A DNA stretch of 55,446 nucleotides, taken from NCBI GenBank assembly GCA_002900535.1, contig MUGC01000005.1, forward strand, positions 1 through 55,446. The letters run 5' to 3'. Every line of letters begins with the position of its first letter. The first letter of the stretch is position 1. The notes under the pieces are model-generated. The model ran no database searches and was not told the DNA's origin. It saw only the letters and a program-made list of their open reading frames with translations. Both the position numbers and the translations under genes were made by a program. Shown here piece by piece: positions 5,965-38,988 of the stretch. The DNA is from Thermoplasmata archaeon M9B1D (GTDB lineage: Archaea > Thermoplasmatota > E2 > DHVEG-1).

Positions 5965-8900
5965 TTATTTTACTGCTGCATGAATCATTGATGAAATTTG
6001 TTCTCTTTTGAATCCTTTTTGGTCGATAGCATCACAGGGACATGCAACTACACAATTTCCACATCCTTTACATGCTCCTTCAATGATATGGAAAACTCTA
6101 ATTTTTTTACCATTTTTTAGTTTTGTTGTTAATTCTATTGCTTTATATGGGCATGTAGTTAAGCATATACCACACCCACTGCATAAATCCTCATTTATAC
6201 TAGCAATTGGAATATCAATGTAATATTTATTATTTGAAATAATTGTTAATGCTCGAGACACTGCACCATATGACTGAGTTAAAGTTTCACTAATTGATTT
6301 CGGTGAATGTGCTAAACCTGCAAGGAATATACCATCGGTTGCAAAATCAACAGGTCGTAGTTTTACATGAGCCTCTAAAAAGAAATTATCTTCATTTAAC
6401 GGTACCTTCAATTTTTTTGCGAGTTTAACATTATCTTTTAATGGAATGATTGCTGGGCTTAAAACAAGGTAGTCCGCATGTATATTCATTATTTCATTAA
6501 TTATGGGTTCTCTTACAGTAATTTCAAGATCTTTTTTACCTTTTCTAACCTTTGGTTTCTGCTCTTTATTGTATCTTATAAAAATAATTCCTCTTTCTCG
6601 TGCTTTTTCATAATATGTTTCTTTAAATGAATATGTTCTAATATCCCGATATAAGATGAAGATTTCTGCATTAGGATGTAATTCTTTTATTTTCAAAGCG
6701 TTTTTTATGGCATCATTACAACATATTCTACTACAGTATGGTCTTTGATTTTCACGTGATCCTACGCATTGTATCATAACAATAGTTTTTTTATTGAAAT
6801 TATGGTCTCTTACAAGTTTTTTCTCAAGTTCAAGCTGAGTCATTATTCGTTTATCTTCACCATAAAAATACTCATTTGGTTTATATTCTTCAGCGCCTGT
6901 AGCAACAATAATAACGCCATGTTTAACGTTTAGTTTTGCGTTAATATTTTTTAATGTAGTAGAATAACTTCCAACGTAACCTTCGACTCTGTCAATCTTT
7001 GCTTTTTTATAAATTTTAATTTTTGGATGTTTCTCAACTTTTTCTATAATTGATTTCATGAATGCTTGAACATCTTTGTTTTCTAGGGTATAAAAAATTT
7101 TTTTAAGGTTTCCGCCTAGTTCTTTTTCTTTTTCAACTAAAAAGACTTCAAATCCTTGATCTGCAATTGCAAGGGCAGATGTCATCCCTGCCAGTCCCCC
7201 ACCTATAACTAGAGCTTTTTGTATGACATCCAATTGAATAGTTGAAATAGGTTCAAGGCTTAATGCTTTTGAAACAGCCATTCTGATAAGATCCTTTGAC
7301 TTCTGTGTTGCAGCCATAGGGTTATTCATGTGCACCCAAGAACATTGATCACGAATATTAGCCATCTCAAAAAGATGAGGATTTAAACCAGCTTCTTGAA
7401 TAGTAATCTGAAATAAAGATTCGTGTGTTCTTGGAGTGCAAGACGCAACAACTACTCGATTTAACTTTTTTTCTTTGATTTTTTCTATAATTTTTATTTG
7501 AGTGTCATCAGAGCAAGAATAAAGATCCTCTTGAGCATATACAACGTTAGATAGTGTTTCTGCATATTTTACTAATGAAGATACATCGACATAGCCGCCG
7601 ATGTTAATACCGCAACGACAAATAAAAACACCAATTCGTGGAGTTTTATTTTTAACATCGATTTCCTTTGGATACGCACTTTTCTCAATTAAAGTGTTTC
7701 TCTTAGAAGCTATTATGCTACCAGCCTTTGCAGCTGCCGCTGAACCCTCTGTAACTGTTTCAGGGATATCTTTCGGTCCAGAAAAAGAACCACAAACAAA
7801 TATACCGTTTCTTGTAGTATCTATAGGATTAAATTCAGTGGTATTACAAAAACCAAAATCGTTTAGACTTACACCTATTTTATTTGCAATTTCTTTCATT
7901 TTTTTATTAGCAGTAATCCCAACTGAGAGTATGACCATATCAAATTTTTCTTCTTTTAGCCAACCATCCTCAGTCTCATATTTTATCAAAAGGTCTCTAG
8001 TTTTTGACTCTTCATTAATACAAGATATTCTACATCTTATAAATCTGACATTGTAATCTTTTTTTGCTCTGTTATAATATCTTTCGAATCCCTTGCTAAA
8101 AGTCCTCATATCAATAAAGAAGATAGTAGGTTCTATTTTTGGAGTATGCTCTTTAGACATTACCGCCTGCTTAATAGCATATATACAACATACAGATGAA
8201 CAATAGTTGTTACCAAAAACATTATCACGTGAACCTACACATTGAATCCAGGCAATTTTTTTCGGTTCTTTTTCATCAGATGGGCGTACTACACGACCTT
8301 GATATGGGCCAGATGCTGAAAGCATATATTCAAATTCTAATGCATTTAAAACATTTGGAAAACGTTCATAACCATATTCGCTTCTCAGTCTAGCATCAAA
8401 AAGATCATAACCAGTTGCAAGTACAATTGAGCCAACGTTTAACTCAAGTATTTTTTCGTTCATTTCGTGATTGATTGCCTCTGCTTCACAAACCTTTGAG
8501 CACTGCATACACTCTGAACAAATAGAACATGAAAGACACCTCTTTGCTTCCTTTACTGCTTCCTCTTCTGTATAACCAAGGTCAATTTCTCTAAAATCTT
8601 TAATACGTTTTTCAACTAGGAGTTTTTTCATTTGTACCCGTGGTTGATCTTTTCTTCTTTCTCTTAGTTCTTTGATTGTGTTTTCTTTTTTTCCACGCCC
8701 CTTTCGTAAATCCTGGTTTTTTATGTACCTATCAATTGATATCGCACCTTCAATACCATGCCCAATTGCCTCAACAACAGAAGCAGGACCAAAAACAACA
8801 TCCCCACCTGCAAATACACCGGGTATATTGGTTTCAAGTGTGACTTCATCTGCTTTTATAGTTTTTCTTTCAGTTAGCTCTAGTTTTTCAAAACCAGTTA

Positions 8901-24512: not shown

Positions 24513-25337
24513 CTATTTTTCTCCAAGTACCTTAATCATGCTAAGTATCTGACCATCTGTAAAACCCAAATGACCAATAGCTTGATTCAAGCAAGCTGCA
24601 GCACAAGAGCCACAACCTTTACAGAGTGCTTCATTTACTTCCGCTACAAGAACTTTATGTCCAAATCGATCTTTTTCAACAAGTTCAATCGCTTTATATG
24701 GGCATACCTCAACACAGAACCCGCAACCACGGCACAACTCTTCATTAACAGTTGCAATTGTCGCCTCAATTTCAAGCTTCTTTTTAGATAAAATATCGGT
24801 GGCACGTGATGCTGCTCCACTTGCTTGAGCAACTGTGTCGGGAACATCTTTTGGACTTTGGCAGCAACCGGCAAGAAAGATTCCATCTGTAAATGTATCA
24901 ACAGGTCTTAGCTTTGGATGTGCCTCTAAAAAGAACCCATCAGCACTCTGATTAATATTTAAAATTCGGGCAATTTCTTTTGAATCGTTACGAGGTACAA
25001 GACCAGCTGCAAGAACAACTAAATCTGCCTCAATATCTGGATGACCTTTAGCTTTTACAACAGCTTTAGCACCTTTTTGCTCGACTTTTATAGGATCATC
25101 AAGTTCACGGCGGCGATAATTAACATTTTCACCTTTAACACGGTTATAAAACTCTTCAAAGCCTTTCCCAAAAGCACGTACATCGGTATAATAAATTGTA
25201 AGATCTGCATCAGGGATTTTATCCCTGACCATATGAGCCTGCTTTGCTGTATACATACAACAAACACGACTACAGTACTCATTACCCTCTTTGTCACGGC
25301 TGCCTACACATTGAATAAATACAACTTTTTTACAAAT
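24513..25337 (-). CDS. hdrA: 3' segment (-1 frame) of the interrupted hdrA::gltD-like gene: HdrA C-terminal FAD-domain half plus 2x[4Fe-4S] ferredoxin
   Basis: The track ORF 24513..25256 begins MYTAKQAHMVRDK. The frame is open upstream to 25337 and reads ICKKVVFIQCVGSRDKEGNEYCSRVCCMYTAKQ, which is the conserved HdrA motif. It is colinear with, and partly identical in DNA to, the 3' end of 28095..29987. Confidence 0.75.
   Translation of the reverse strand: MCKKVVFIQCVGSRDKEGNEYCSRVCCMYTAKQAHMVRDKIPDADLTIYYTDVRAFGKGFEEFYNRVKGENVNYRRRELDDPIKVEQKGAKAVVKAKGHPDIEADLVVLAAGLVPRNDSKEIARILNINQSADGFFLEAHPKLRPVDTFTDGIFLAGCCQSPKDVPDTVAQASGAASRATDILSKKKLEIEATIATVNEELCRGCGFCVEVCPYKAIELVEKDRFGHKVLVAEVNEALCKGCGSCAAACLNQAIGHLGFTDGQILSMIKVLGEK
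25189..25333. repeat. 145-nt tract 100% identical to 28771..28915 (hdrA paralogs)
   Basis: Compared base by base by eye. The flanks drop to mismatched paralog-level similarity. The tract ends exactly at the frame break of the 25304..28123 gene. Confidence 0.85.
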
Positions 25338-28123
25338 TCAAGACCAGTTTTAACATTTTTAGATTTTCCATAAGCATACTCAAGTTTTTGAGTTGGATCA
25401 AATAAATCAAAACCAGTTGCAACAACAATAGCACCAACATCAAGTTCAACGATTTCTTCTTTCATATCATGGCATATTGCTCCCGCTTCACAAGTATTAA
25501 CACACTCGTAACATTCTGAGCAGCCACCACAGTTAAGACAACGCCTCGCTTCTTCTATTGCTTCTTCTTCAGAATAACCCAACTCTACTTCTTTGAAATT
25601 TTTGATTCTTTCTTTAACTGGAAGATACCTCATTGGAACCATATGTTTCTTTCTCAAACCTTCAACCGAAGGTTTTGCAATTTCAGGTTTTTCTTCACGT
25701 CCTTCTCTTAAGTCTTTTCCGTTGATATATCTATCAATGCTATCTGCTGCTCTTTTCCCAGCACCAATTGCTTCAATAACAGTTCCAGCACCCCAAACCG
25801 CGTCACCACCACTAAAAACACCTTCGATGTTTGTTTCAAGAGTAACAGGATCAGAATGAATAGTATCCCATTTTGTTAATTTTAAATCATCAAATTCATT
25901 TTTTGGAAAAGCAACAGGAACAACCTTTTTAGAACTCCATCGAGTCATTTCTAAATCAATTTCTTTAGATAAAAAATCAGTATCTAATTCTTGTCCAATT
26001 GCGAGGATAATGCTGTCTGCTCTTATTTTAAATTCAGAATCGAGAATTGGCTTGACCTTTCGTCTTCCACTTGTATCTTTTTCATCAAGAAGTTGCATTC
26101 TGATACATTCAACCTCTTTAACATTACCGTTTTTATCACCGACTACCCTAGTTGGTGCAACAAGATATACAAGTTTAACTCCTTCTTTTTCTGTTTCATC
26201 GATTTCCCAATCTGGTTCTGCTGGCATTTCTTCACGAGTACGACGATATAAAATAGAAACATCATTTGCCCCTAAACGTATAGCAGAACGAGCGGCATCT
26301 AAAGCTGCATTACCACCACCGATGACTAATACTTTTTTACCTATTTTTGGAGATAAATCTCTAAAACCTGATAACTTAATTGCTTTAGATGGACAAACTG
26401 ATGCGCATTTTCCACAGCCTCTACAAAGATATTTCTTATAAATCTGAGGATTTTTTTTCTTTGGATTTTTCGTATCCGGTTTTGTTTTAATTACTCCGTA
26501 ATAACAAACTTCTTCACATTTTCCACATCCTATACAGAGATTTTCGTTAATCTCAACAAGAGACGACGTAATAACTCGACCTAGATTTATATCTTTTAAA
26601 AAATCTATAGCCTGAAAAACGCCATTTAAATCTTCACCAGGGATATTCATCTTTTTGCCTTTTTGAGCACCTATTGATAAGAAAACGGATTTAAATCCAC
26701 GATTAAACAAATCTTGCAGAGTAAAATCTTTACCAAGCGCTGTATTAAGATGAACCTGTACTCCAAGTGCTAAAATATCAGAAATCTCTCGCTCAAGAAT
26801 TTCTTTAGGAAGCCTGAATGCTGGAATTCCAAAACGCATCATTCCTCCAAGTACTGATGCTGCCTCAAAGATAGATACGTGATACCCTTTTAATGCTAAA
26901 TCATGAGCACAGGTAAGACCTGCAGGTCCTCCACCAACTATAGCTATTTTTTCTGCTCTTGTCTCAATTGGAGGAATCTCTATAGCTGGAATCTTTAGCT
27001 CTAAATCACCAACAAATCTTTTAATATGTGCAATTTGGATAGGATCATCAAGATCTTTACGAGTACAAGCTTCTTCACATGGTCTATGACATATGCGACC
27101 ACAAATTGATGGAAAAGGTAGACGTTCCTTAATAACCCTGAGAGCTTCATAGAATTTCCCACGACCTACAAGAGTAACATAACCAGGAGCACCAACGCCC
27201 GCGGGACATACATCTCTACAAGGGTGCTTACCACGTTTATCAATCGTAGCTTTAAGAGGTACCGCCTGTGGAAAAGGAGTATATATAGCATGTCTAGTAC
27301 CATAGCCCTCATCAAATTCATTTGGTAATTCAACAGGACAGCCATTAAAGCACTCACCACAGCCTGTACATTTCTCCATATCGACATATCTTGGCTTCTT
27401 TTTCACTTTAACTTTAAAGTTACCAACGTAACCCTCAACACTTTCAATTTCGGAATAAGTCAATAATTCAACATTACAATGACGAGCAACATCAACCATT
27501 TTAGGAGTTAAAATACAAGCAGAGCAATCCATAGTTGGAAAAGTCTTATCAAGCTGAGCCATATGACCACCAATGCTTGGTGATCGTTCAACAAGATAAG
27601 TTTTAAAACCCATATTACCTATATCAATTGCTGCTTGAATACCAGCAATACCACCACCAACAACCAGAGCAGCAGGTGTTACACCAACTGTCTTTTTTTC
27701 AAGTGGTTTTAAAAGACCTACTTTAAAAACAGCACTTTGAACAAGTGATTTTGCTTTTTCTGTTGCTTCTTCCTTATTTTTATGAACCCAACTACATTGC
27801 TCACGAATATTTACCATCTCAAGGCAATATTCATTTAAACCCATATCTTTGAGTACTTTTCTAAATGTTGGTTCATGCATACGAGGAGAGCAACTTGCTA
27901 CAACAACCCGATCAAGTTTTAACTCTTTTATATCTTTTTTAATGAGTTCTTGCCCTGGATCAGAGCACATATACTTGTAAAATCTACTAACAGCAACATA
28001 TGGTAGTCTTTTTACATGTTCTACAACTTTTTCAACATCAACTGTTGCCGCAATATTGATTCCACATTCACAAACATATGCTCCAATTCGCAAATCACTT
28101 GCCTCCCTTGCTTTTATGAGCAA
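25304..28123 (-). CDS. hdrA: 5' segment of an interrupted HdrA::NfnB/GltD-like fusion (HdrA N-domain and FAD core, nested GltD-like module carrying its own inserted ferredoxin)
   Basis: 939-aa ORF.
- IGAYVCECGINIA (HdrA N-domain), VVGGGIAGIQAA, DKTFPTMDCSAC, CTGCGECFNGCPV.
- The GltD-like module follows, aa ~299-860 (LPFPSICGRICHRPCEEAC, IAIVGGGPAGLTCA, VIGGGNAALDAARSAIRLGA..YRRTREEMPA), with an extra CIGCGKCEEVC..CRGCGKCASVCP insert.
- The sequence then reads CLNCGGCSECYECVNTCEAGAI.
- The likely true start is TTG 28093 (LRIGAY aligns with MKIGVY of the paralog), 8 nt after GGGAGG and 1 nt after the upstream stop. Confidence 0.8.
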   Translation of the reverse strand: MLIKAREASDLRIGAYVCECGINIAATVDVEKVVEHVKRLPYVAVSRFYKYMCSDPGQELIKKDIKELKLDRVVVASCSPRMHEPTFRKVLKDMGLNEYCLEMVNIREQCSWVHKNKEEATEKAKSLVQSAVFKVGLLKPLEKKTVGVTPAALVVGGGIAGIQAAIDIGNMGFKTYLVERSPSIGGHMAQLDKTFPTMDCSACILTPKMVDVARHCNVELLTYSEIESVEGYVGNFKVKVKKKPRYVDMEKCTGCGECFNGCPVELPNEFDEGYGTRHAIYTPFPQAVPLKATIDKRGKHPCRDVCPAGVGAPGYVTLVGRGKFYEALRVIKERLPFPSICGRICHRPCEEACTRKDLDDPIQIAHIKRFVGDLELKIPAIEIPPIETRAEKIAIVGGGPAGLTCAHDLALKGYHVSIFEAASVLGGMMRFGIPAFRLPKEILEREISDILALGVQVHLNTALGKDFTLQDLFNRGFKSVFLSIGAQKGKKMNIPGEDLNGVFQAIDFLKDINLGRVITSSLVEINENLCIGCGKCEEVCYYGVIKTKPDTKNPKKKNPQIYKKYLCRGCGKCASVCPSKAIKLSGFRDLSPKIGKKVLVIGGGNAALDAARSAIRLGANDVSILYRRTREEMPAEPDWEIDETEKEGVKLVYLVAPTRVVGDKNGNVKEVECIRMQLLDEKDTSGRRKVKPILDSEFKIRADSIILAIGQELDTDFLSKEIDLEMTRWSSKKVVPVAFPKNEFDDLKLTKWDTIHSDPVTLETNIEGVFSGGDAVWGAGTVIEAIGAGKRAADSIDRYINGKDLREGREEKPEIAKPSVEGLRKKHMVPMRYLPVKERIKNFKEVELGYSEEEAIEEARRCLNCGGCSECYECVNTCEAGAICHDMKEEIVELDVGAIVVATGFDLFDPTQKLEYAYGKSKNVKTGLEFVKKLYLFNV
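27860..27999. repeat. 140-nt tract 100% identical to 29774..29913 (5' parts of the tandem hdrA paralogs)
   Basis: Compared base by base by eye. It encodes YKYMCSDPGQELIKKDIKELKLDRVVVASCSPRMHEPTF in both genes. Confidence 0.85.
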
Positions 28124-29987
28124 CTATTCCATCTATTTGTGCGATAATTTGTTTAACAGCAAAATGTCTCATTGAAATCGCGCCAGACGGACACGTAGAT
28201 GCGCAAGAACCGCATCCTTTACACATAACTTCGTTTACTCGCATAACGCCTGCTTTTTCATCAAATTCAAGAGCAGAATAAGGACACATCCTTTCACAGA
28301 CTTTACATCCACTGCATAAATCTTCATTAATAGTAGATGTAATTGCTTCAACCTCAACTTTACCTTGTGCAAGCGGTTCAGATGCGCGAACTGCTGCACC
28401 ACTTGCTTGAGCAACAGCATCAGGAATATCCTTTGGCCCTTGGCAGCAGCCAGCAAGAAAGATTCCATCTGTAAATGTATCAACAGGTCTTAGCTTTGGA
28501 TGTGCCTCTAAAAAGAACCCATCACTACTTTGACTAATATTTAATACTCGTGAAAACTCTTTAGCATCTTCTTTTGGAACTAACCCTACTGCTAGAACTA
28601 CAAGGTCTGCCTCAATATCAGAATAACCCTTTGCCTTAACAACTGTTTTATCGGCATTCGTTACAACCTCGATTGGATCATCAAGTTCACGGCGGCGATA
28701 ATTAATATTTTCACCTTTAACACGGTTATAAAACTCTTCAAAGCCTTTTCCAAAAGCCCTGACATCCGTGTAATAAATTGTAAGATCTGCATCAGGGATT
28801 TTATCCCTGACCATATGAGCCTGCTTTGCTGTATACATACAACAAACACGACTACAGTACTCATTACCCTCTTTGTCACGGCTGCCTACACATTGAATAA
28901 ATACAACTTTTTTACCATTGAGTACATTTTCACATGTTCCGTAACCATACTTGGGTTTTGTAAGAGGATCAAAAATATCATAACCTGTAGCAACAACAAT
29001 AGTTCCAACATCGATTGTGATTATTTCTTCTTCTTGACTAAAATCTATTGCTTCACGGTCACATGCCTCTTTACATAAAGGATGATCTCCGCATTTCCCA
29101 CGTTTAACCATTAAACAATTATTTGGATCAATTGTATATTTCAAAGGAACTGCCTGAGGAAATGGGACATAAATTGCACTACGTTTGCTAAGTTTCATGT
29201 CAAACTCATTAGGAATTCTTCCATGAAGACGACATGATTCAGCACAAACCCCACATCCAACACATTTATCTATATCAACGTAACGTGGTTTCTTTTTAAT
29301 TTTTACTTTAAAGTTACCAATATAACCATCAATATTTTCAACTTCCGAATAAGAAAGCAATTCGATGTTTGGATGCCGAGCAACATCGACCATTTTAGGA
29401 GTCAAGATACAAGCAGAGCAATCCATAGTTGGAAAAGTCTTATCAAGCTGAGCCATATGACCGCCAATACTTGGAGATCGTTCAACAAGATAAGTTTTGA
29501 AACCTTTATCAGCAATCTCAAGTGATGCCTGAATACCGGCAATACCACCACCAATCACAAGAGCCTTTGGTATTACACTTACCTCTTTTTTCTCAAGGGG
29601 CTCAAGAAATTCAGCTCGGCAAACAGCACCAGTAATAAGTTCAATTGCTTTTTCAGTTGCTACATCCTTGTCTAAATGAACCCAACTACAATGCTCACGT
29701 ATATTTACCATTTCAAAAAAATAAGGGTTTAAACCTGCTTCTTCAACAGCGGCTCTAAATGTTGGTTCATGCATACGAGGAGAGCAACTTGCTACAACAA
29801 CCCGATCAAGTTTTAACTCTTTTATATCTTTTTTAATGAGTTCTTGCCCTGGATCAGAGCACATATACTTGTAAAATCTACTAACAGCAACATTTGGAAT
29901 TTTCTCAATTTCTTTTGCAACTTTTTCAACATCAACTGTTGCTGCGATGTTGATTCCACATTGGCAAGTATATACTCCGATCTTCAT
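28095..29987 (-). CDS. hdrA: HdrA (single-core, canonical domain order: N-domain, FAD core with inserted ferredoxin, C-terminal ferredoxin)
   Basis: 630 aa. Motifs KIGVYTCQCGINIA, VIGGGIAGIQAS, DKTFPTMDCSAC, CVGCGVCAESC, IQCVGSRDKEGNEYCSRVCCMY, CSGCKVCERMCP and CKGCGSCASTCP are present. It lacks ~26 residues present in the other in-window HdrA cores (see findings). Confidence 0.85.
   Translation of the reverse strand: MKIGVYTCQCGINIAATVDVEKVAKEIEKIPNVAVSRFYKYMCSDPGQELIKKDIKELKLDRVVVASCSPRMHEPTFRAAVEEAGLNPYFFEMVNIREHCSWVHLDKDVATEKAIELITGAVCRAEFLEPLEKKEVSVIPKALVIGGGIAGIQASLEIADKGFKTYLVERSPSIGGHMAQLDKTFPTMDCSACILTPKMVDVARHPNIELLSYSEVENIDGYIGNFKVKIKKKPRYVDIDKCVGCGVCAESCRLHGRIPNEFDMKLSKRSAIYVPFPQAVPLKYTIDPNNCLMVKRGKCGDHPLCKEACDREAIDFSQEEEIITIDVGTIVVATGYDIFDPLTKPKYGYGTCENVLNGKKVVFIQCVGSRDKEGNEYCSRVCCMYTAKQAHMVRDKIPDADLTIYYTDVRAFGKGFEEFYNRVKGENINYRRRELDDPIEVVTNADKTVVKAKGYSDIEADLVVLAVGLVPKEDAKEFSRVLNISQSSDGFFLEAHPKLRPVDTFTDGIFLAGCCQGPKDIPDAVAQASGAAVRASEPLAQGKVEVEAITSTINEDLCSGCKVCERMCPYSALEFDEKAGVMRVNEVMCKGCGSCASTCPSGAISMRHFAVKQIIAQIDGIVAHKSKGGK
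28771..28915. repeat. partner copy of 25189..25333
   Basis: Identical 145-nt string, offset 3582 nt. Confidence 0.85.
29774..29913. repeat. partner copy of 27860..27999
   Basis: Identical 140-nt string, offset 1914 nt. Confidence 0.85.
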
Positions 29988-29996
29988 ATTTATCCT

Positions 29997-30836
29997 TCAC
30001 ATTTCTCCTTTCAAATTCTTAAGTTGATCATATGAAAAAACTGGTCCGTCTTTACACACATAAAGATTTCCAATGTTGCAACGACCACATTTGCCTATTC
30101 CGCATTTCATTCTCATTTCAAGTGTTGTAAATATTTGGTCTTCAGAAAAACCAATCTTTAGTAAGTTTTGTATTACAAACTTAATCATAATAGGAGGTCC
30201 ACATGTAATTGCAATTGTATTTTTTGGAGAAGGTTTAATCTTAAGCAAATTATCTGGAACAAAACCGACAAACTTTTTCCAACCTTTTTCTTCTTTATCT
30301 ATTGAAAGGTGAACATTAACATCTTTTCTTTTTTCAAGTTCCTCGAACTCGGGTTTGAAACAAATATCATTTGTTGAACGTGCACCATAAATAACATCGA
30401 TTTTACCGTAATTTTTACGATTATCAACAACGTAGTTAATCAATGAGCGGAGTGGTGCCTGACCGATACCACCACCAATAAATACTAGATTTTTGCCCTC
30501 CCATCCTTTAACATCAAAATTGTTACCATAGGGACCTCGTACACCTAGAGTATCACCTATTTCACATTCATGTAACGCAGAGGTTACCTTACCAAGTTTC
30601 ATCACACTAACTTCAATGTATTCTTTTTTTGTAGGAGCCGAGGATATTGCAAAGAAACATTCACCAAAACCAAAATGTGAAACCATTATGCATTGACCTG
30701 GAAGATATGAAAAATTTTTTTTGATTTTGTCATCTTGAAATATTAAGCGGAGGGTTTTAATTGCCCTTTCGCCTGTATTTTCCTGAACGATTTTTTCAAT
30801 TTTTGCAAGCCATGGTTGATATGGATTTTCTGTTAT
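29997..30836 (-). CDS. FlxA/HydG/NfnA-family FAD/NAD(P)-binding [2Fe-2S] flavoprotein (extended N-terminus, apparent ATA start)
   Basis: The track ORF 29997..30686 starts mid-domain. The same frame is open 150 nt further upstream and encodes ITENPYQPWLAKIEKIVQENTGERAIKTLRLIFQDDKIKKNFSYLPGQCIM, homologous to the N-terminus of 17932..18762. The C-terminal MKCGIGKCGRCNIG..VCKDGPVF is present. Confidence 0.75.
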   Translation of the reverse strand: MTENPYQPWLAKIEKIVQENTGERAIKTLRLIFQDDKIKKNFSYLPGQCIMVSHFGFGECFFAISSAPTKKEYIEVSVMKLGKVTSALHECEIGDTLGVRGPYGNNFDVKGWEGKNLVFIGGGIGQAPLRSLINYVVDNRKNYGKIDVIYGARSTNDICFKPEFEELEKRKDVNVHLSIDKEEKGWKKFVGFVPDNLLKIKPSPKNTIAITCGPPIMIKFVIQNLLKIGFSEDQIFTTLEMRMKCGIGKCGRCNIGNLYVCKDGPVFSYDQLKNLKGEM

Positions 30837-31875: not shown

Positions 31876-32859
31876 CTAAAGTATGAATTCTTCTGGATCA
31901 TCCGGTTTAAACATAGATAAAAGTGGTTTTACATCAACATCTAGACCTGCTCTGTAGTCAAACAACTCAAGTACTTCTTTTTCTAGCTTTTTATTTAATT
32001 TAACTAAAGGAATCTCAGCGGGACATACTCTTTCACATTCACCGCAGTCAATACAACGACCAGCAAGATGAAAAGCTCGCATAATATTCCAAGCAGTGTT
32101 TTCTGAAACATTCACCGACCTGCGAATCCATTGAGGATTAAGTTGATCTACCATACATTCTTTACAATAGCACATAGGACAAACATTACGACAAGCATAA
32201 CAACGAATACATTTTTCAAACTGTTTTTCCCAGTATTCCCATTTTTCTTTTAAAGATTTTTTTTCAAAAGATTCAACGTCTTTATAATTGGGTTTACCGG
32301 TAGTTTTAATTTCAGACCCTACCAGTACATCATAAATAATCGGGTTAGGAAACTGGCATTGTTTGCATTTATCCATTAATAATTCTTCTTTTGGAACTTT
32401 GTGAGTTTTCCCGTCTATTTTAATTACAAAGTTATTTGCATCTTCATCGATATCTACAGTTTTTGTCTGATTTGGAAATTTTTTATTTATCTTTTTAGGA
32501 TCAATAACACCCGTGCAAGGAATCCCGATTATAACCACATCATCGCGATTCAAACCTTTTTCTTGGATGATTTGAACTATAGCCCGAGAATCACATCCTT
32601 TAACAATAACGCCAACTTTACGTTTATCTTCCTCTGCTCCTTTTCGCAAAGGTAGTTTTTCTTGAAGCATTAGAAAAACAGTAAGATTATGAACACATAA
32701 AGGATTGAAAATTAATCTTTCTACATCATCGGAGGATGTTATAAACAAAGGTGTAACCTGGAATCCATGTGTTCCTTTTTCCCAGCCGATTACGTATTTT
32801 ACATCATCGCGGTTTATGATTTTTTCTGTGCTTTCTCTAAGTTTTTTAAGGTCTACCAA
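31876..32859 (-). CDS. Fe-S oxidoreductase subunit, FlxC-like (2x[4Fe-4S])
   Basis: 327 aa. Motifs VKGCDSRAIV..IIGIPCTG, CIRCYACRNVCPMCYCKEC and CIDCGECERVCP are present. The call follows from its position between the MvhD-like and FlxB-like genes. Confidence 0.5.
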   Translation of the reverse strand: MVDLKKLRESTEKIINRDDVKYVIGWEKGTHGFQVTPLFITSSDDVERLIFNPLCVHNLTVFLMLQEKLPLRKGAEEDKRKVGVIVKGCDSRAIVQIIQEKGLNRDDVVIIGIPCTGVIDPKKINKKFPNQTKTVDIDEDANNFVIKIDGKTHKVPKEELLMDKCKQCQFPNPIIYDVLVGSEIKTTGKPNYKDVESFEKKSLKEKWEYWEKQFEKCIRCYACRNVCPMCYCKECMVDQLNPQWIRRSVNVSENTAWNIMRAFHLAGRCIDCGECERVCPAEIPLVKLNKKLEKEVLELFDYRAGLDVDVKPLLSMFKPDDPEEFIL

Positions 32860-33293
32860 GAATTCGACCTCCTTATCTGATGCGTTGGACCAAGTTTACG
32901 AATATCATCTGTTACTTCTCTGATTACATCTGCAAATTTTTTACCTTCTGCTGCTGACACCCAGGTCATACGAACTCTTCGTTCATCTATCCCTAGATAT
33001 TCAAGTAATTTTTTTAAAACAGCAATACGACGACGGGCAAAATAATTACCTTGAATATAATGACAATCACCCGGGTGACATCCACCTATTAATACCCCAT
33101 CAGCTCCCTCATGTAGAGCATTTACTATAAACATAGGGTTAACACGACCAGAACACATAACACGTATTATTTTCACATTTGGTGGATACTCTATTCTACT
33201 GGTACCTGCTAAATCAGCTCCAGCATAAGAGCACCAATTACATAAAAAAGCTACAATATTAGGCTCAAAACTATCTTTTGACATATGCTTCAA
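32853..33293 (-). CDS. mvhD: MvhD/FlxD-type [2Fe-2S] adaptor protein (copy 2)
   Basis: 146 aa. Motifs FLCNWCSYAGADLAGTSR, VMCSGRV and GGCHPGDCHY are present. It is close to 35677..36096 in sequence. Confidence 0.8.
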   Translation of the reverse strand: MKHMSKDSFEPNIVAFLCNWCSYAGADLAGTSRIEYPPNVKIIRVMCSGRVNPMFIVNALHEGADGVLIGGCHPGDCHYIQGNYFARRRIAVLKKLLEYLGIDERRVRMTWVSAAEGKKFADVIREVTDDIRKLGPTHQIRRSNSW

Positions 33294-34239
33294 TTGGTCC
33301 CATGTTTTCTAATTCTTTGACAAATTTATTAATCTCTTGTTGTAATTTTGCTGATTCACCTGTTGAAAACCAATCAAGTTTTAAACGTTTAGGATTAATA
33401 TTTAATTCTTTTAAAATATTTTTAAGAAGAATAAGTCTTCTGCGGGTTTTATAATTTCCATCATGGTCACATTCTTCAGGTGGACAACCAGCTACCATAA
33501 CACCCCATGCACCTGATTCAAATGCATCAAGAATTAATTCAGGGGCAACACGACCGGAGCACATTGTAACAATTATACCATATGGTGTTTTAACAAGTGT
33601 TTCTGTTTCACTTAGTTGCATACCAGGAAAAATCGAATAATTGCAAGCAAACACGAGTAATTTTTTATCATCTTTTTTCAAAATTTCTTTCACGCTTTCA
33701 TGAAGTTCAGGTAACGTTACATTACATCCTTCTTTTTGAGAAATAGCACCAGAAGGGCAAGCTGCAAGACAGAGCCCACAGCCGCGACATTCAACCTTGT
33801 CTACTTCGATTTTCTTTTTGTCTTTTCCTTTATCAACTATTTTGAGTGCATCATACTTACATAGAGGTACGCATACACCACAGACACTACATAGATCTTC
33901 ATCAATTTGAACAATAGTGCCTTGAACTTCAAAACCTGCATTGATTAAATCAGCACGTGCATCGGTTAAGATATCTGTTACTGGTACTCCAGCAGAACAA
34001 TTATCGCTACAGTTTTTACAATAAAAACATTGAAAGATTTTATCAACAACTTCCTGTGTAGGTGCTATCTTTCCAGTAATCATTCCGTGAACCATTAAAA
34101 GTTTTCCACGAGGGGTATCTGATTCCCAGCTGTAAGATTTAAATAAAGGACAAAGTTCATAACAATATCCACAACGAATGCATTTATCAAGCTCATTTTC
34201 CCATTTTTTTGAGCGTTTAAAATCGACTTTTTTGACCAT
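33271..34239 (-). CDS. fusion protein: GlcF/HdrC-type N-terminal 2x[4Fe-4S] domain, ferredoxin domain and degenerate MvhD-like domain
   Basis: 322 aa.
- CIRCGYCYELCP..TPRGK..CFYCKNCSDNC (GlcF/HdrD-type N-domain).
- CSVCGVCVPLC..CRGCGLCLAACP (ferredoxin).
- FACNYSIFPG..TMCSGRV..AGCPPEECDHDGN (MvhD-like, with CNWC degraded to CNYS). Confidence 0.65.
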   Translation of the reverse strand: MVKKVDFKRSKKWENELDKCIRCGYCYELCPLFKSYSWESDTPRGKLLMVHGMITGKIAPTQEVVDKIFQCFYCKNCSDNCSAGVPVTDILTDARADLINAGFEVQGTIVQIDEDLCSVCGVCVPLCKYDALKIVDKGKDKKKIEVDKVECRGCGLCLAACPSGAISQKEGCNVTLPELHESVKEILKKDDKKLLVFACNYSIFPGMQLSETETLVKTPYGIIVTMCSGRVAPELILDAFESGAWGVMVAGCPPEECDHDGNYKTRRRLILLKNILKELNINPKRLKLDWFSTGESAKLQQEINKFVKELENMGPIEAYVKR

Positions 34240-34241
34240 GA

Positions 34242-35675
34242 TTACTTTACCACCCTATATCGTAAATCTGTTGCTTTCACCCAGTCATCTGGAGCATCCA
34301 TGAGTTTATGTGGATTTAAAATATTATTTGGATCAAGTGCTTTTTTAATAGCACGCATCATAGGAATTATATCTGCTCTTGCTTTTTTCCAAGGAGGCGC
34401 CTTAGATAAGCCAATTCCATGCTCAGCAGACGTTACACCGCCAACTGAATGAATATAATCATAAAGTTCTTCTATTACCTTATCAGCATCCTTCCATTGA
34501 TCCTTCTTTTTTGGATCAAGCATAATCTTTGTATGAATTACTCCAGATCCACAATGACCATAAACTGCCATAATTACATTATTTCGTTTAGCTATTTCAT
34601 GGATTTTTGCAGCTGCTTCAGCAATTTTTGAATTTGGAACACCCATGTCATCTGCAAGGTCGGTACAGATGATTCCCTCTTTATATCTAGAAAGCGCGGC
34701 AAAAAGTTTTTTTCTTCCACTAAAGATACGTTTTCTTTCCTCTGCATCGTAGCTAAGTTCTATTCCGAAACCATTATGTGCTTTACAGATTTCTTTCATT
34801 TTATTAATTTCAAAATCAACTGCTTCTTTCACATTACCATCTGCTTCAAATAAGATAATTGCTCCAACCTCTTTCAATCCAAGATCTAATGCCTTATTAA
34901 CAGCAACAATTCCAATTCCATCCATCAGCTCAAGCATAGAAGGCTGACACCCGCTAGTGATAATTTCTGATATAGCATTTCCTGCGTCTTCCAATTTATT
35001 AAAATTTGCAACACCTAGACAACGAAATTTTGGAAGCGGATAAATTCTTATAGTTGCCTCAACAACAATACCAAGAGTACCCTCGGAACCAACGATAAGG
35101 CGTTCAAGCTGATAACCCGAAGAATGAACACGGGTATTTGCACCAAGGTTAACTAGGCTGCCATCTGCAAGTACAACTTTTAAACCTAAAATATAGTCGC
35201 GAGTGGCACCATATTTCACAGATCTAACACCTGAAGCATTAGCTGCAATCTCACCACCAATTGTGGCAATTCTACTAGATGCTGGTGCTGGCGGATAAAA
35301 AAAACCATATGGCAAAAGCGCACGATTTAAATCATCATCAACAACACCAGGTTCCACCCGAACAAGTACATCTCCAGGTTTTATCTCAAGAATATGATTC
35401 ATTTGTTTCATATCCATGACAATTCCACCGTCGATAGGGACTGCATGGCCACTGGTACCAGTACCTGCACCACGTGGAATAACAGGAATCCTGTTTTTAT
35501 TTGCATATCTCATAATTTTTTGAACTTGTTCAATTGTTTTTGGACGAACTACAACATTAGGCATTGCTTGATGAACTGATGCATCTCCAGAATATGCATA
35601 TAAATCCACGGGGTTGTCAGTTGCATTTTCAGATCCAACGATTTTTTTAAGGTTTTCAACATCAACTTTTTTCAT
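34242..35675 (-). CDS. glcD: FAD-linked oxidase, GlcD/D-lactate dehydrogenase family
   Basis: 477 aa. It has a PCMH-type FAD-binding N-domain (VVRP.T.EQV..I..A....IPV.PRGAGTG.SG) and a C-terminal FAD-oxidase domain (SAEHGIG). Confidence 0.8.
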   Translation of the reverse strand: MKKVDVENLKKIVGSENATDNPVDLYAYSGDASVHQAMPNVVVRPKTIEQVQKIMRYANKNRIPVIPRGAGTGTSGHAVPIDGGIVMDMKQMNHILEIKPGDVLVRVEPGVVDDDLNRALLPYGFFYPPAPASSRIATIGGEIAANASGVRSVKYGATRDYILGLKVVLADGSLVNLGANTRVHSSGYQLERLIVGSEGTLGIVVEATIRIYPLPKFRCLGVANFNKLEDAGNAISEIITSGCQPSMLELMDGIGIVAVNKALDLGLKEVGAIILFEADGNVKEAVDFEINKMKEICKAHNGFGIELSYDAEERKRIFSGRKKLFAALSRYKEGIICTDLADDMGVPNSKIAEAAAKIHEIAKRNNVIMAVYGHCGSGVIHTKIMLDPKKKDQWKDADKVIEELYDYIHSVGGVTSAEHGIGLSKAPPWKKARADIIPMMRAIKKALDPNNILNPHKLMDAPDDWVKATDLRYRVVK

Positions 35676-35676: not shown

Positions 35677-36096
35677 TTATGCGATCTCCTTCAGAGGTGT
35701 TGGTCCCAATTTTTTTAATTGATTTACAAAATCAGTTACTACTTGTGCAAACTTTTGTCCCTCTGAAGCAGACACATATTCAAATCGTACTCGCTCAGGT
35801 TCTACACCCATATCATTAAGAAATTTTTTCAAAAGCCTAATCCTTCGATTAGTTTTGTAGTTTCCAGATTGGTAATGGCAATCACCAGGGTGACAACCAG
35901 CAATGAGAACACCATCAGCACCCTTTCGAAGTGCTTCAAGGATAAAAACCGTGTCAACCCGACCGGAGCACATTACTCTTATGGATTTGATATTTGGTGG
36001 ATATTTTATCCTACTAGTACCTGCTAAATCAGCTCCAGCATATGAGCACCAGTTACATAGAAAACCAATAATGTTTGGTTCAAATTCTTTTGCCAT
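35677..36096 (-). CDS. mvhD: methyl-viologen-reducing hydrogenase delta subunit
   Basis: 139 aa. Motifs FLCNWCSYAGADLAGTSR, VMCSGRVD and AGCHPGDCHY are present. Confidence 0.85.
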   Translation of the reverse strand: MAKEFEPNIIGFLCNWCSYAGADLAGTSRIKYPPNIKSIRVMCSGRVDTVFILEALRKGADGVLIAGCHPGDCHYQSGNYKTNRRIRLLKKFLNDMGVEPERVRFEYVSASEGQKFAQVVTDFVNQLKKLGPTPLKEIA

Positions 36097-36108
36097 AATT
36101 TTTTCACC

Positions 36109-36582
36109 TCAAATATCTAATTTTATCTTTTTTATCTCATTAAGTGTTAATTCTACGGCATTTGGAACAGCCGCAGCAATATCTTTGCTTAGTTTTTCCC
36201 TAAACTCACAAGGGATTTCTTTCATCATTATTCCAATGATTATGATATCTTTAGGAATTCTGGTTTCTCCCATTTTTTTTGCCATTTCAATGGCTTCTAT
36301 CAGCGATACATCATGTGGGTTGCATGAATGCATCGTGTTGAAATCGCTAAGAGGAATTCTTTTTACTTCCCCGTTTTCTGCATCTTTTGATTTTACTGCA
36401 TCAATGATTATCGCTCTATCGTATCCTATTATTAGATCTAACAGGTTCATACCACCTGTTATTGCTTCGTCAAGTGTTACATCTGGGTCATTGATTTGTT
36501 TTTTCAGCTCGTTTACTACGTGTATTCCTACACCATCATCGCCAAGAATGAGATTTCCCACTCCCAGTACGATGGTTTTCAT
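36109..36582 (-). CDS. [NiFe] hydrogenase maturation endopeptidase (HycI/FrhD/HyaD family)
   Basis: 157 aa. It has the N-terminal VLGVGNLILGDDGVGIHV motif plus later D and H ligands. Confidence 0.8.
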   Translation of the reverse strand: MKTIVLGVGNLILGDDGVGIHVVNELKKQINDPDVTLDEAITGGMNLLDLIIGYDRAIIIDAVKSKDAENGEVKRIPLSDFNTMHSCNPHDVSLIEAIEMAKKMGETRIPKDIIIIGIMMKEIPCEFREKLSKDIAAAVPNAVELTLNEIKKIKLDI

Positions 36583-36595
36583 AGATATTTTTCCT

Positions 36596-37987
36596 CTACA
36601 AATTTTGTCTTAGTGTTTTGTATAATTTTTTGTTATGGTCAAATATTTTTACCTCTAGTGGCATACCACCAGGTAATGTATGTGTTGCACATGCAAAACA
36701 TGGGTCATATGCGCGAAATGCCATTTCTACCATGTTTAGTGTTTTGTTGCTGACATCTCCTTTTTTAATTACCCCTTTTGCTGCGTCTCTTACACTCATA
36801 TTTATTGCACCAGCATTGTTTGTTGTTGCAACAATAAGATTTGCTTTGTCAATAAGTCCATCTTTTGTTAGTTTATAGTGATGAATTAATGTTCCTCTTG
36901 CTGCTTCTGTTACGCCCATTCCTTCACCTGGTTCACCTACAGGGTTTCTGATTTTTTGGCTGGTGATTTCAGGGTCATTTACCAGTTCTTTTGCTCTTTC
37001 AGTTGCATATAAAAGTTCGATGAGTCTAGCCCAGTGAAATGCAAGAGTACTGTTGACTGCTTTCCCACCTAGAGTTTCATACATTCTTTTGTATTCTTTA
37101 TCTGCGAGTGGTGTTGCCATACCTTCTGCTGCATTAAGTCTTCCTAGTGGTCCTACACGATATATCCCACTGTCTTTTCCATCTTTGAATCCTTTCCAAC
37201 CTACAGATTTTAGATAAGTGAATTTTATATATGTCCATTCCTCAACGTGTTCTGCTATATGTTTATAATAGTCTTTTACATCAAATTTTAACTTTTCTTT
37301 TCCTTGCTGGTCAGTTACTCTAATTTTTCCGTCATAAAAGTTCACCTTGTTATTTTTGTCAACAAGCCCCATGTTATATGTTGCAAGTTGATATGGGTCA
37401 CTTAGAATCAAGTTAACATAGTCTTTATTTTTAAGCACTATATCATCAAATAGTTTGAGTGAAAATTGTGCAAATTTGATACATGAGTCAACCATTGTTT
37501 TTATATCTTTTACTTCATCTTTGTTTAAACCTTTTGAAACACCGCCAGGTAAACCACACACAGGATGTGTTGCCTTACCGCCAAGAATTGCTGTAATTTT
37601 TTGACCGTATGCTCTGTGTTTTATTACTTCTTTTCCGATTTCCACTCCTGCTTTTTCAATTACACCTATTACATTTCGTTTTGCTGGTGGTGCATCAGGA
37701 CCAACAACAAAATCAGGCCCCCCAAGATAATAGAAATGTAATATATGATCATAGATATAGTAACCCACATACATTAATTCACGAAGTTTTTTAGCAGCAC
37801 TAGTTGGCTCTACATTGAACGCTGCATCAAGGGCTTTTGTTGATGCAAAATGATGAGCAACAGGAAAACCACGAAGTTCAGGAATCTGTAAATATGCGTT
37901 TTCAACATCGCCTTTGTCGTCCAAAAATATACTTATTTTTCCATGACCTTCAAGACGGGTTATCGGGTCTATTGTAACTGTTCTCAT
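36596..37987 (-). CDS. mvhA: MvhA-like [NiFe] hydrogenase large subunit (group 3c context) lacking the N-terminal RxCGxC motif
   Basis: 463 aa. It has the N-terminal ITRLEGHGKISIFLDD and the C-terminal DPCFACATH plus a cleavable tail. After ELRGF the sequence jumps straight to PVAHH, so there is no CxxC. Confidence 0.8.
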   Translation of the reverse strand: MRTVTIDPITRLEGHGKISIFLDDKGDVENAYLQIPELRGFPVAHHFASTKALDAAFNVEPTSAAKKLRELMYVGYYIYDHILHFYYLGGPDFVVGPDAPPAKRNVIGVIEKAGVEIGKEVIKHRAYGQKITAILGGKATHPVCGLPGGVSKGLNKDEVKDIKTMVDSCIKFAQFSLKLFDDIVLKNKDYVNLILSDPYQLATYNMGLVDKNNKVNFYDGKIRVTDQQGKEKLKFDVKDYYKHIAEHVEEWTYIKFTYLKSVGWKGFKDGKDSGIYRVGPLGRLNAAEGMATPLADKEYKRMYETLGGKAVNSTLAFHWARLIELLYATERAKELVNDPEITSQKIRNPVGEPGEGMGVTEAARGTLIHHYKLTKDGLIDKANLIVATTNNAGAINMSVRDAAKGVIKKGDVSNKTLNMVEMAFRAYDPCFACATHTLPGGMPLEVKIFDHNKKLYKTLRQNL

Positions 37988-38988
37988 TTTTTCATCACTC
38001 TCCTGTTTATAAGAGCAGAGGGCAGACCATATTTGTAAAACGTCCCAATAGGATCTACAACTTGATCTATCAATTTTTGTACTTCTTCATCACTCATTTT
38101 TTCTTCACCCTCTATACCGAGAATACTAGCAAGTGCAGATATCATCTTAGCACCTTGATCAAGCGAGTTGGGTGTTGGCCCTCCACAACCAGTACATGGC
38201 ATATTTGCATCTAAACATCGTGCACTACATCCACCACGGGTTGCTGGACCAAGGCAAATAATACCTTGTTCAAGAAGGCATTTTTCTTCTATTTTATCTA
38301 CTTCATATACTCTTTTTATCTCCTTGATTTTTTTCTCGGTTTTTTCAAATCTGCATTCATCACATACAGATTTCATTGGGCCAATAATTGATCCTTTTGG
38401 TGGTAGTTTATTTTCAACAATTGCACCTACAGCAGTCATAATTTGATCGGGTGTAGGTGGACAACCAGGTAGATAATAATCAACATCAACTGTTTGATCC
38501 AATGTTTTTACAGTATCATAAAACTCTGGAAGTGTAAGAGTACCCTCCTTTACTTTAACAGATGTTTTTGGAACAATTTTTTTAGGATTATCAGTCGATG
38601 GATTATCTAAATAAGCAACTCTAAAGACTTCCTCACGGTTTGCAACATTTGCAAGACCAGGTATCCCACCGTTAACTGCACATGCCCCAAATGCCACCAT
38701 AAATTTGGATTTCTTACGCAATAGTTTTGCGATATGTTCTTGTTCTTCAGTTCTTATTGACCCATTGAAGAAACAAACATCTATTTGTTTATCCTTCATT
38801 GCTTCTACATCTTTGTACTTGAAATCCATTGCAACTGGCCAGAATAAAATATCTGCAATGCCAATTACATCTAGTATTTTTTCATCGATATCAAGTACAG
38901 CGATTTCACATCCGCCACAACTTGCGGCCCAATAAAAAGCAAGTTGCAGTTTCTTTTTTGCTTCACTTTTCTTTTTTTCTTTTGTCAT
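37984..38988 (-). CDS. mvhG: MvhG-like [NiFe] hydrogenase small subunit
   Basis: 334 aa. It has WAASCGGCEIAVLD and multiple distal Cys motifs (CDEC, CLGPATRGGC, CTGCGGP). Confidence 0.8.
   Translation of the reverse strand: MTKEKKKSEAKKKLQLAFYWAASCGGCEIAVLDIDEKILDVIGIADILFWPVAMDFKYKDVEAMKDKQIDVCFFNGSIRTEEQEHIAKLLRKKSKFMVAFGACAVNGGIPGLANVANREEVFRVAYLDNPSTDNPKKIVPKTSVKVKEGTLTLPEFYDTVKTLDQTVDVDYYLPGCPPTPDQIMTAVGAIVENKLPPKGSIIGPMKSVCDECRFEKTEKKIKEIKRVYEVDKIEEKCLLEQGIICLGPATRGGCSARCLDANMPCTGCGGPTPNSLDQGAKMISALASILGIEGEEKMSDEEVQKLIDQVVDPIGTFYKYGLPSALINRRVMKK

Follow-up and report, generated by a model that had tools for sequence, protein, structure and literature searches.

The fusion gene and its assembly gap

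The window analysed here is the whole 55,446-bp contig of the metagenome-assembled genome (MAG) 'Thermoplasmata archaeon M9B1D', a member of the Thermoprofundales/MBG-D recovered from Mai Po mangrove sediment. Few archaea are as abundant in sediments as the Thermoprofundales, whose energy metabolism has been little explored. The gene in question lies on the minus strand and encodes a fusion of HdrA, which is, to our knowledge, one of only four known scaffolds of flavin-based electron bifurcation, with a GltD/NfnL-like cassette for flavin adenine dinucleotide (FAD) and NAD(P)H. It is probably a complete, bifurcation-competent type III HdrA in which the inserted ferredoxin domain is broken by a permuted NAD(P)H cassette that feeds it.

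A preliminary description of this DNA had taken the open reading frame (ORF) 25304..28123 as the gene. That frame exists in the window and is deposited in GenBank as PNX49707.1 (929 aa, annotated 'hypothetical protein'), but it ends abnormally in ...NVKTGLEFVKKLYLFNV at a stop produced by a gap of 61 nt, and the rest of the HdrA is encoded by the next ORF, 24513..25256. The true gene runs over 24513..28093, and its TTG start at 28093 is called by NCBI and JGI alike. When the window is combined with the JGI contig L001 from the same sample, a single open frame of 1213 aa is obtained, which has the same length as P0001 (91% identical) and fits the homologues of 1212–1213 aa that are 77–91% identical; residue numbers throughout refer to this intact composite protein. 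The GenBank 'hypothetical protein' truncated by the gap is thereby corrected.

L001 is 100% identical to the window except for short pieces missing from one or the other. The 61 nt absent between 25332 and 25333 encode ERLVSASGPTEGHIKINGKEP and are kept in L001 and in two further assemblies (P0029 and P0131). Similarly, the adjacent HdrA gene of the window lacks 72 nt, in frame, near ~28914, which strips its LEFER…SASGPT segment together with the equivalent of E356, and the large subunit of the [NiFe] hydrogenase (MvhA-like) lacks 69 nt between 37865 and 37866; judged from the translation, the latter loss appears to remove the region that normally bears the N-terminal Ni-binding Cys motif. L001 in turn lacks three other pieces that are present in the window (in L001 numbering, between 12946 and 12947, 9373 and 9374, and 410 and 411). 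Three genes, those of the fusion, HdrA and MvhA, are affected by these reciprocal gaps of 40–72 nt. A stretch of 124 nt next to the fusion's junction matches 28791..28914 of the adjacent HdrA paralogue exactly, and every assembly breaks at its borders. The M9B1D MAG was assembled with IDBA-UD from 150-bp reads and then re-assembled. Because the gaps are reciprocal in otherwise identical assemblies, the breaks lie at repeat borders, the missing peptide is present elsewhere and the source is a short-read IDBA-UD assembly, the frame break is treated here as an assembly artefact. No further stops or frameshifts occur across the 3.6 kb of the gene. Two other causes of the break were considered, slippage by 1 nt within an A6 run (which might have been a programmed frameshift) and a TGA/selenocysteine codon; both were dropped, since the identical JGI contig shows a 61-nt gap instead. 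It was also observed that the tandem HdrA paralogues share patches of 100% identity (the 124 nt, and 60–120 nt near the 5' ends) against a background of ~80%, which suggests gene conversion.

The HdrA backbone, the cassette and the extra ferredoxin

Residues 2–287 and 858–1205 of the fusion align to HdrA of M. thermolithotrophicus (5ODC residues 5–291 and 293–644, E 1e-227), and apart from the insert the alignments to 5ODC_A, 8RVV_A and 7BKB_A run end to end (E 1e-187 to 1e-229). All domains of an HdrA are present, namely the N-terminal Cys-rich domain, the TrxR-like FAD domain, and the inserted and C-terminal 2x[4Fe-4S] ferredoxin domains, and the N-terminal part carries the DCSAC motif with the equivalent of Cys197. 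Both markers of the bifurcating flavin (K409 and E356 in M. thermolithotrophicus numbering) are found, the Lys in CCMYTAKQ and the Glu in LEFER; the E356 equivalent falls inside the missing 61 nt and is supplied by L001, P0029 and P0131. With respect to 5ODC, the insert falls between residues 291 and 293, inside the inserted ferredoxin domain, which is the mark of a type III HdrA. From the alignments to HdrA on the one hand and to NfnABC, Stn, NfnB and GltD modules on the other, it follows that the cassette directly precedes the second Cys motif of the inserted ferredoxin. The four clusters around the junction have 16 Cys in all, none of which varies among 40 diverse sequences.

The preliminary description had proposed a nested order of ferredoxin inside a GltD-like module inside ferredoxin inside HdrA, with the same insertion point as in the 1478-aa HdrA of the window, and the alignments to 5ODC and to NfnABC and NfnB confirm this nesting. 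The 1478-aa protein is colinear with the fusion across both junctions (50% and 42% identity), and the insertion point is therefore the same; relative to the 1213-aa fusion it lacks only residues ~506–582 and a 26-aa loop. The suggestion that the architecture is old and maintained also holds, as there are dozens of intact homologues of 1180–1215 aa, the cassette occurs in several archaeal phyla and the 16 Cys are invariant.

The 570-residue insert matches NfnABC, Stn, NfnB and GltD modules with E values of 1e-113 to 1e-60. It matches the NfnL-like modules of NfnABC from C. saccharolyticus (9BOV_A, 383 bits) and T. sibiricus (9N5U_A, 371 bits) and of StnC (311), as well as T. maritima NfnB (343), P. 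furiosus NfnL (300), GltD (216) and DPD (141). An AlphaFold model of residues 236–901 (pLDDT 82.8, pTM 0.79) retrieved the same structures in the same order by Foldseek, with the NfnABC and StnC cassettes on top (TMq 0.66–0.67). The cassette carries a GxGxxG FAD fold and a GxGxxA NAD(P)H fold with LYRRTREEMPA; its FAD and NADPH Rossmann motifs read GGGPAG, GGGNAA...YRR and IPAFRLPK, the last with the equivalent of R187, the Arg at flavin N5. This Arg does not discriminate for bifurcation, because it is also conserved in the non-bifurcating StnC. The Cys of its clusters (C292, C296, C331, C335, C339, C343, C852 and C855) are all invariant. A 26-aa insertion specific to the lineage is found neither in the 1478-aa protein nor in the homologues of 1184–1190 aa.

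Judged from the motif order, the cassette is circularly permuted relative to stand-alone NfnB, since the segment homologous to the NfnB N-terminus now stands at its C-terminal end. The order found is Cx3CP...GRxCx3Cx3C, FAD, NADPH, FAD and ...RCLxCG, set between Fe-S domains of the host, and the same permuted order is found in StnC, in the NfnA subunits of NfnABC and in 67 of 77 classifiable close cluster representatives. The first NfnB motif, RCx2Cx4Cx3CPV, which is contiguous and N-terminal in NfnB, is split here between the two ends of the insert, with Cx3CP (HPCRDVCP) at the start and RCx2C (RRCLNC) at the end. In place of GRVCPQExQCx3C, the NfnB motif of the non-canonical proximal cluster, the cassette has GRICHRPCEEAC (Cx3Cx3C), as do StnC, NfnABC NfnA and GltD. 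An nfnA gene immediately upstream and co-evolving is a further mark of NfnB; the gene upstream here is hdrA, and the nearest FNR-like gene is of the HydG type. GltD proper does not fit either, with scores of 217 for TIGR01317 (cut-off 448) and 274 for TIGR01318 (cut-off 483), and no GltB-like gene was found among the scanned ORFs of the window. By these sequence features the cassette is a permuted module of the StnC/NfnABC/GltD type and not a canonical NfnB. When the hosts of related cassettes were classified, 27 of 107 representatives classed as 'other' contained HdrA parts by BLAST; the regular expression used for HdrA context thus under-called, and the share of non-HdrA hosts is overstated.

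An extra 2x[4Fe-4S] ferredoxin lies between the two dinucleotide folds of the cassette, as the preliminary description had noted, with CIGCGKCEEVC...CRGCGKCASVCP at window positions 26390..26536. None of the solved relatives matched by the cassette has a ferredoxin between its two dinucleotide folds. All eight Cys of the domain are invariant. Each of the four HdrA paralogues of the window has a C-terminal ferredoxin domain to which it is 39–41% identical (E 4e-16 to 2e-11), and it is far less similar to the inserted ones. In the AlphaFold model it is folded (pLDDT ~75–87) between linkers below 50.

Among the 120 best homologues, the extra ferredoxin occurs in 75, including 36 of 36 homologues of 1180–1215 aa and 27 of 40 long forms with two TrxR-type halves; within the same set, neither the forms of ~1100–1135 aa (Theionarchaea, Methanofastidiosia and Asgard) nor a group whose NAD(P)H fold is duplicated have it. 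In that group (P0066, P0072 and P0112; ~1287–1292 and 1688 aa) the duplicated fold replaces the extra ferredoxin, which makes it a type III HdrA variant of its own. GTDB species genomes gave 17 full-length matches, almost all in Thermoplasmatota MAGs. None of the best 150 representatives from 1.84 billion cluster representatives has the extra ferredoxin, a set that does not contain the family's own representative, and this shows only that the domain is rare in the superfamily. A phylogeny of the inserts, proposed in the preliminary description, was approached with a rough neighbour-joining tree of 158 cassettes, in which the extra-ferredoxin cassettes form one clade (17 of 17 members, 19 of 30 bootstraps) and the window's two fusions belong to different subclades; it does not resolve how HdrA-embedded cassettes relate at depth to the others, so the number of insertion events is not settled. 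On this sequence basis the extra ferredoxin is a new element that appears to define one mainly Thermoplasmatota clade, and such a defined clade is suited to testing for a second electron port. A cassette 76% identical to the Thermoprofundales one was also found on a 2.7-kb contig binned as 'Candidatus Thorarchaeota' (L008, JBHLQZ010000303.1), possibly a binning error.

Neighbouring genes and related loci

As shown in Table 1, an ordinary type I HdrA is encoded directly upstream of the fusion and is a candidate dimer partner; further upstream lie genes of HydG, HydB, FlxC and MvhD types, followed by GlcD-type and MvhAG genes. The set resembles FlxD-C-B-A followed by hdrA and then the fusion.

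Table 1. Features of the fusion gene and its surroundings in the window
Feature	Position	Strand	Remarks
Type III HdrA gene, complete	24513..28093	-	TTG start at 28093, TAG stop 24513-24515; 61-nt gap in contig
N-terminal 4-Cys domain, first part of TrxR-like FAD domain, first half of inserted ferredoxin	27233..28093	-	residues 1-287; 5ODC_A 5-291, 422 bits
Inserted-ferredoxin Cys motif 1, CTGCGECFNGCP	27335..27370	-	residues 242-253; C242, C245, C248, C252 invariant in 40 sequences
GltD/NfnL-like FAD and NAD(P)H cassette	25523..27232	-	residues 288-857; two [4Fe-4S] sites
Extra 2x[4Fe-4S] ferredoxin	26345..26575	-	residues ~507-583, 77 aa; at crossover from FAD fold to NAD(P)H fold
Lineage-specific 26-aa insertion in cassette	25892..25969	-	residues 709-734; predicted disordered
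Segment homologous to stand-alone NfnB N-terminus, …NFKEVELGYSEEEAIEEARRCLNC	25529..25648	-	at C-terminal end of cassette; T. maritima NfnB 3-42, P. furiosus NfnL 7-45
Inserted-ferredoxin Cys motif 2, CSECYECVNTCE	25487..25522	-	residues 858-869; HdrA sequence resumes
Junction with 61 nt missing	25332..25333		retained in sibling assemblies; causes frameshift and false stop at 25304
124-nt stretch	25209..25332	-	exact match to 28791..28914 in adjacent HdrA paralogue; assemblies break at its borders
HdrA C-terminal 2x[4Fe-4S] ferredoxin domain of fusion	24555..24770	-	domain search, 5ODC alignment
Type I HdrA, ordinary, directly upstream of fusion	28095..29987	-	630 aa; ~654 aa with 72-nt in-frame gap restored
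HydG/AsrB/FlxA-type FAD-NAD(P)H-[2Fe-2S] protein, 279 aa ('NfnA-like' in the preliminary description)	29997..30836	-	ATA replaces ATG start
HydB/ShyB/AsrA-type Fe-S protein (FlxB-like), 341 aa	30833..31858	-	cognate partner of 279-aa HydG-like protein
FlxC-like Fe-S protein	31876..32859	-	RnfC-type dicluster; orthologue matches FrhB_FdhB_C
MvhD/FlxD-like [2Fe-2S] protein	32853..33293	-	PF02662, E 4e-58
Fusion of HdrC/GlcF-like dicluster, ferredoxin and MvhD domains	33271..34239	-	domain search
GlcD-type FAD-linked 2-hydroxyacid dehydrogenase	34242..35675	-	domain search
MvhD, hydrogenase maturation protease, MvhA-like [NiFe] large subunit, MvhG-like small subunit	35677..38988	-	69-nt gap between 37865 and 37866
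Other fusion of the window, 1478-aa HdrA	5965..10401	-	cassette at same site, no extra ferredoxin, second TrxR-type half

The 279-aa neighbour had been assigned to the NfnA/SudB/HydG family, and of this assignment the HydG part stands and the NfnA part does not. It matches the gamma subunit of P. furiosus sulfhydrogenase (9NEZ_C) with 211 bits as against 54 bits for T. maritima NfnA (4YLF_A), and among NCBIfam models it scores 261 bits for PRK08345 (hydrogenase gamma), 211 for HydG, 208 for ShyC and 203 for AsrB, with 79 bits for the NfnA/SudB-like model NF004862. Its [2Fe-2S] site has four Cys (KCGIGKCGRC...C) instead of the DGTGMCGxCR of NfnA with its Asp ligand, Asp(Cys)3, and its gene overlaps and is translationally coupled to the HydB/AsrA-like gene upstream. 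To judge from these sequence features, the protein is of the sulfhydrogenase-gamma/AsrB/FlxA type and not an NfnA. At 30834–30836 its gene reads ATA in place of the ATG of three orthologues (…GGAGGTGAAACCATGAAAG versus …GAGGTGAAAGCATAACAG); its Shine-Dalgarno sequence has been preserved and the ATA base is the same in both assemblies, so that either a non-canonical start codon is used or the start has been lost.

Neighbourhoods were compared at 25 related loci. The trio of HydG-like, HydB-like and FlxC genes is retained together with HdrA in the closest clade (at least 72% identity) and recurs, in a different gene order, beside a Hadarchaeota HdrA::GltD gene without the extra ferredoxin, but most other extra-ferredoxin fusions (those linked to MetVF, EtfAB or HdrCB) have no HydG-like neighbour; the conservation asked for in the preliminary description thus extends to the closest clade and the Hadarchaeota and not beyond. 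Some extra-ferredoxin fusions adjoin MetV-MetF and two MvhD genes, others adjoin EtfAB and an HdrD-like protein, and the long forms adjoin MvhGA-MvhD-GlcD…HdrC-HdrB. Almost every locus compared has MvhD in its cluster, and fusions with the extra ferredoxin adjoin an MvhD gene just as often as those without it. Wherever a short-backbone locus is complete, the fusion has a type I HdrA immediately upstream, the one exception being L007, which is linked to EtfAB.

The Hadarchaeota locus (L025/L026, 6630–15105), which belongs to a distant lineage, reads HdrA, HdrA::GltD without the extra ferredoxin, MvhD, FlxC-like, HydB-like and HydG-like. At another locus (L006, 1–15447) a unit of 8,240 nt, MetV-MetF-HdrA-MvhD-fusion-MvhD, is repeated almost twice, which may be a circular or tandem assembly artefact. 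The fusion itself belongs to a large redox island at window positions 5965–48825, which holds four HdrA paralogues (1478, 1213, ~654 and 1071 aa), two HdrB-like genes and one HdrC-like gene, MvhAG, three free MvhD and one fused MvhD, as well as GlcD, a 2-oxoacid:ferredoxin oxidoreductase, a fumarate-reductase-like flavoprotein, LarA, phosphoenolpyruvate carboxykinase and malic enzyme.

Known systems and the proposed electron path

An HdrA with a GltD-like insert is an already published architecture: HdrA9-11 of ANME-1 and the 'type III HdrA' of ANME-1 and Bathyarchaeota carry the same kind of insert, a GltD/NfnB-like FAD-NAD(P)H domain of ~500 aa that breaks the inserted ferredoxin and for which a role in connecting NAD(P)H directly with the bifurcating FAD has been put forward (Chadwick et al. 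2022, PMC9012536; Microbiol Spectr 2025, PMC12054007). The fusion described here differs in that it comes from Thermoprofundales without methane metabolism, adds a 2x[4Fe-4S] domain and a 26-aa loop to the cassette, and has GxGxxA where the published set is reported with GxGxxG; that the published set lacks the extra domain is judged from its stated insert size. What is new here, the nested-ferredoxin clade and the recognition of the cassette as a permuted module, amounts to modest points.

It has been reported that the MetFV-HdrABC-MvhD complex of Moorella thermoacetica, which has been purified, oxidises NADH, and that its HdrA (1487 aa) has a TrxR-like domain broken by a [4Fe-4S]/FAD/NAD(P)H GltD domain (Mock et al. 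2014, through the accounts in PMC5861303 and PMC9430772). The GltD domain sits at the same place as in the fusion, and the extra-ferredoxin homologues L004, L006 and L024 also adjoin metVF and mvhD. The Moorella protein is a two-TrxR form like the 1478-aa protein of the window, whereas the 1213-aa fusion has a single TrxR and an N-terminal domain; the locus here has Flx-, Mvh- and GlcD-type genes in place of metVF, and an extra ferredoxin is not known from the Moorella HdrA.

The best sequence and fold matches of the cassette are the NfnL-like cassettes of the Bfu-family NfnABC and StnABC (9BOV_A, 9N5U_A and 8OH5_C), which share the permuted order with ...RCLxCG at the module end, the GRxCx3Cx3C motif and the placing of the cassette between Fe-S domains of a larger protein, where it feeds a remote bifurcating flavin. 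In StnABC and NfnABC the cassette is known to be the site of NADPH oxidation, and the flavin that it supplies, which bifurcates, lies elsewhere; the FAD of StnC itself is non-bifurcating. Unlike the fusion, these systems have a NuoG/Fdh-like host with the bifurcating FMN in the B subunit, whereas the host here is an HdrA with its own FAD, and none of their structures has a ferredoxin between the dinucleotide folds. NfnAB/NfnSL (4YLF and 5JCA; 343 and 300 bits) shares the fold, the FAD and NADPH sites, the two [4Fe-4S] clusters and the Arg of IPxFRLPK; the non-permuted order, the GRVCPQExQCx3C motif and the need for an NfnA partner, whose gene lies immediately upstream and whose [2Fe-2S] cluster is of the Asp(Cys)3 kind, belong to NfnB only. 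The cassette may be regarded as a portable, permuted input module common to StnC, NfnABC and many HdrAs, which would make the function of type III HdrA easier to predict.

For the neighbouring genes, Ramos et al. are said to have proposed in 2015 that FlxABCD-HdrABC of Desulfovibrio is an NADH-dependent bifurcating Hdr. In domain content, the level of the comparison, the locus appears to fit Flx, with an NAD(P)H flavoprotein of the HydG kind, a pair of Fe-S proteins and one MvhD-like protein beside hdrA; it differs in its D-C-B-A order, in having two HdrA paralogues in place of HdrABC, and in that an NAD(P)H cassette is built into one of the two. Among solved structures, the best matches to the 341-aa and 279-aa neighbours are the beta and gamma subunits of P. 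furiosus sulfhydrogenase I (9NEZ_B and 9NEZ_C; 176 and 211 bits), but group-3b alpha and delta genes are absent here and the neighbours lie between MvhD/FlxC-like genes and hdrA.

From the domain order, the conserved cofactor motifs and the gene neighbourhoods, we infer the following electron path, partners and direction of reaction. The cassette would bind NAD(P)H and FAD and take a hydride onto its FAD, from which single electrons would pass via the two cassette [4Fe-4S] clusters into the two clusters of the inserted ferredoxin and on to HdrA's bifurcating FAD; the flow may also run the opposite way. The pyridine nucleotide would thus take the arm that is used by free ferredoxin in the Mvh-Hdr of methanogens. 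The fusion probably dimerises with the ordinary HdrA encoded just upstream, and MvhD-type proteins probably dock further modules, namely the FlxABC-like proteins (HydB/HydG-type), the MvhAG hydrogenase and the GlcD-type dehydrogenase. This NAD(P)H-input reading is favoured because the HdrA core is intact, the cassette has its cofactor motifs and resembles StnC and NfnABC, the Moorella complex oxidises NADH, the reading has also been put forward for the type III HdrA of ANME-1 and Bathyarchaeota, and MvhD and type I HdrA genes recur beside these fusions. Several points weigh against it. A look through the literature gave no biochemistry on archaeal type III HdrA, this protein included; no hdrBC is adjacent to the 1213-aa fusion; its gene is broken in this contig; the model assigns no function to the extra ferredoxin; and the place of the cassette on the low-potential arm obscures both the thermodynamic logic and the direction in which the reaction would run. 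In addition, the GxGxxA and YRR…EMPA motifs resemble those of NADPH-specific relatives, yet the Moorella complex uses NADH, so that either nucleotide may be the substrate.

Other readings have to be weighed against NAD(P)H input through the cassette. A decaying pseudogene in the population, with the frame break, the in-frame losses in HdrA and MvhA and the loss of ATG in the HydG-like gene all real, would account for three cluster genes with gaps that take out essential residues and for an ATG-to-ATA change seen in both assemblies; it is very improbable, since the identical assemblies each lack pieces that the other keeps, every break lies at the border of a repeat common to paralogues, the source is a re-assembled IDBA-UD assembly of 150-bp reads, the 3.6 kb hold no other stop or frameshift, and the orthologues are intact. 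The preliminary description had instead suggested an Nfn-like NAD(H)/NADP(H) unit grafted onto HdrA, in which the cassette would be the equivalent of NfnB with a bifurcating FAD and the 279-aa neighbour would dock as an NfnA surrogate, giving an Nfn-type NADH/NADPH transhydrogenase. In its favour, the two proteins are members of the NfnB and NfnA superfamilies, the closest clade retains the neighbour, which also recurs in another gene order by the Hadarchaeota HdrA::GltD gene, and two bifurcation sites were also raised by Chadwick et al. (PMC9012536). The proposal nevertheless finds no support in the neighbour, which is HydG/AsrB-type by its scores (211 versus 54 bits; NCBIfam 261/211/203 versus 79) and has four Cys and not Asp(Cys)3 as [2Fe-2S] ligands, whose gene always follows a HydB-like gene with FlxC and MvhD, and which is absent from the MetVF-, EtfAB- and HdrCB-linked loci; nor does it in the cassette, which lacks the NfnB hallmarks, GRVCPQExQC among them, and has the topology of Stn/NfnABC, whose FAD does not bifurcate. 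An Nfn-type unit is accordingly improbable here.

It is somewhat less doubtful, though still unlikely, that the extra ferredoxin serves as a second electron port of the cassette, either as an outlet that makes the cassette FAD bifurcating or as a tethered dock for MvhD or ferredoxin, so that the protein would have two branch points. The domain is most similar to the C-terminal ferredoxin domains of HdrA, far above the inserted ones, and the C-terminal domain is where MvhD feeds HdrA; its invariant Cys, its predicted fold between low-confidence linkers and the several MvhD genes per locus point the same way. Against this, MvhD adjacency is no commoner than for fusions without the domain, and the domain could be purely structural or a relay. 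A more specific form, to which we give slightly less credence, is that the extra domain arose by copying the C-terminal ferredoxin with which HdrA faces MvhD and is tethered by flexible linkers at the FAD/NADPH hinge, as a second one-electron outlet of the cassette flavin or a second docking port for MvhD or ferredoxin, with two coupled branch points; if true, a single bifurcating machine could link NADPH, NADH (Flx), H2 (Mvh) and a 2-hydroxyacid (GlcD).

In keeping with the NAD(P)H-input reading, a sister MAG transcribes GltD-type HdrA genes at some of its highest levels. Two genes labelled '(HdrA)', each of which may correspond to any of the paralogues, are among the top-expressed of this MAG, M8B2D, at 9,708 and 3,091 transcripts per million; they are annotated there as glutamate-synthase-beta-like and as pyridine nucleotide-disulfide oxidoreductase, respectively (PMC6461988).

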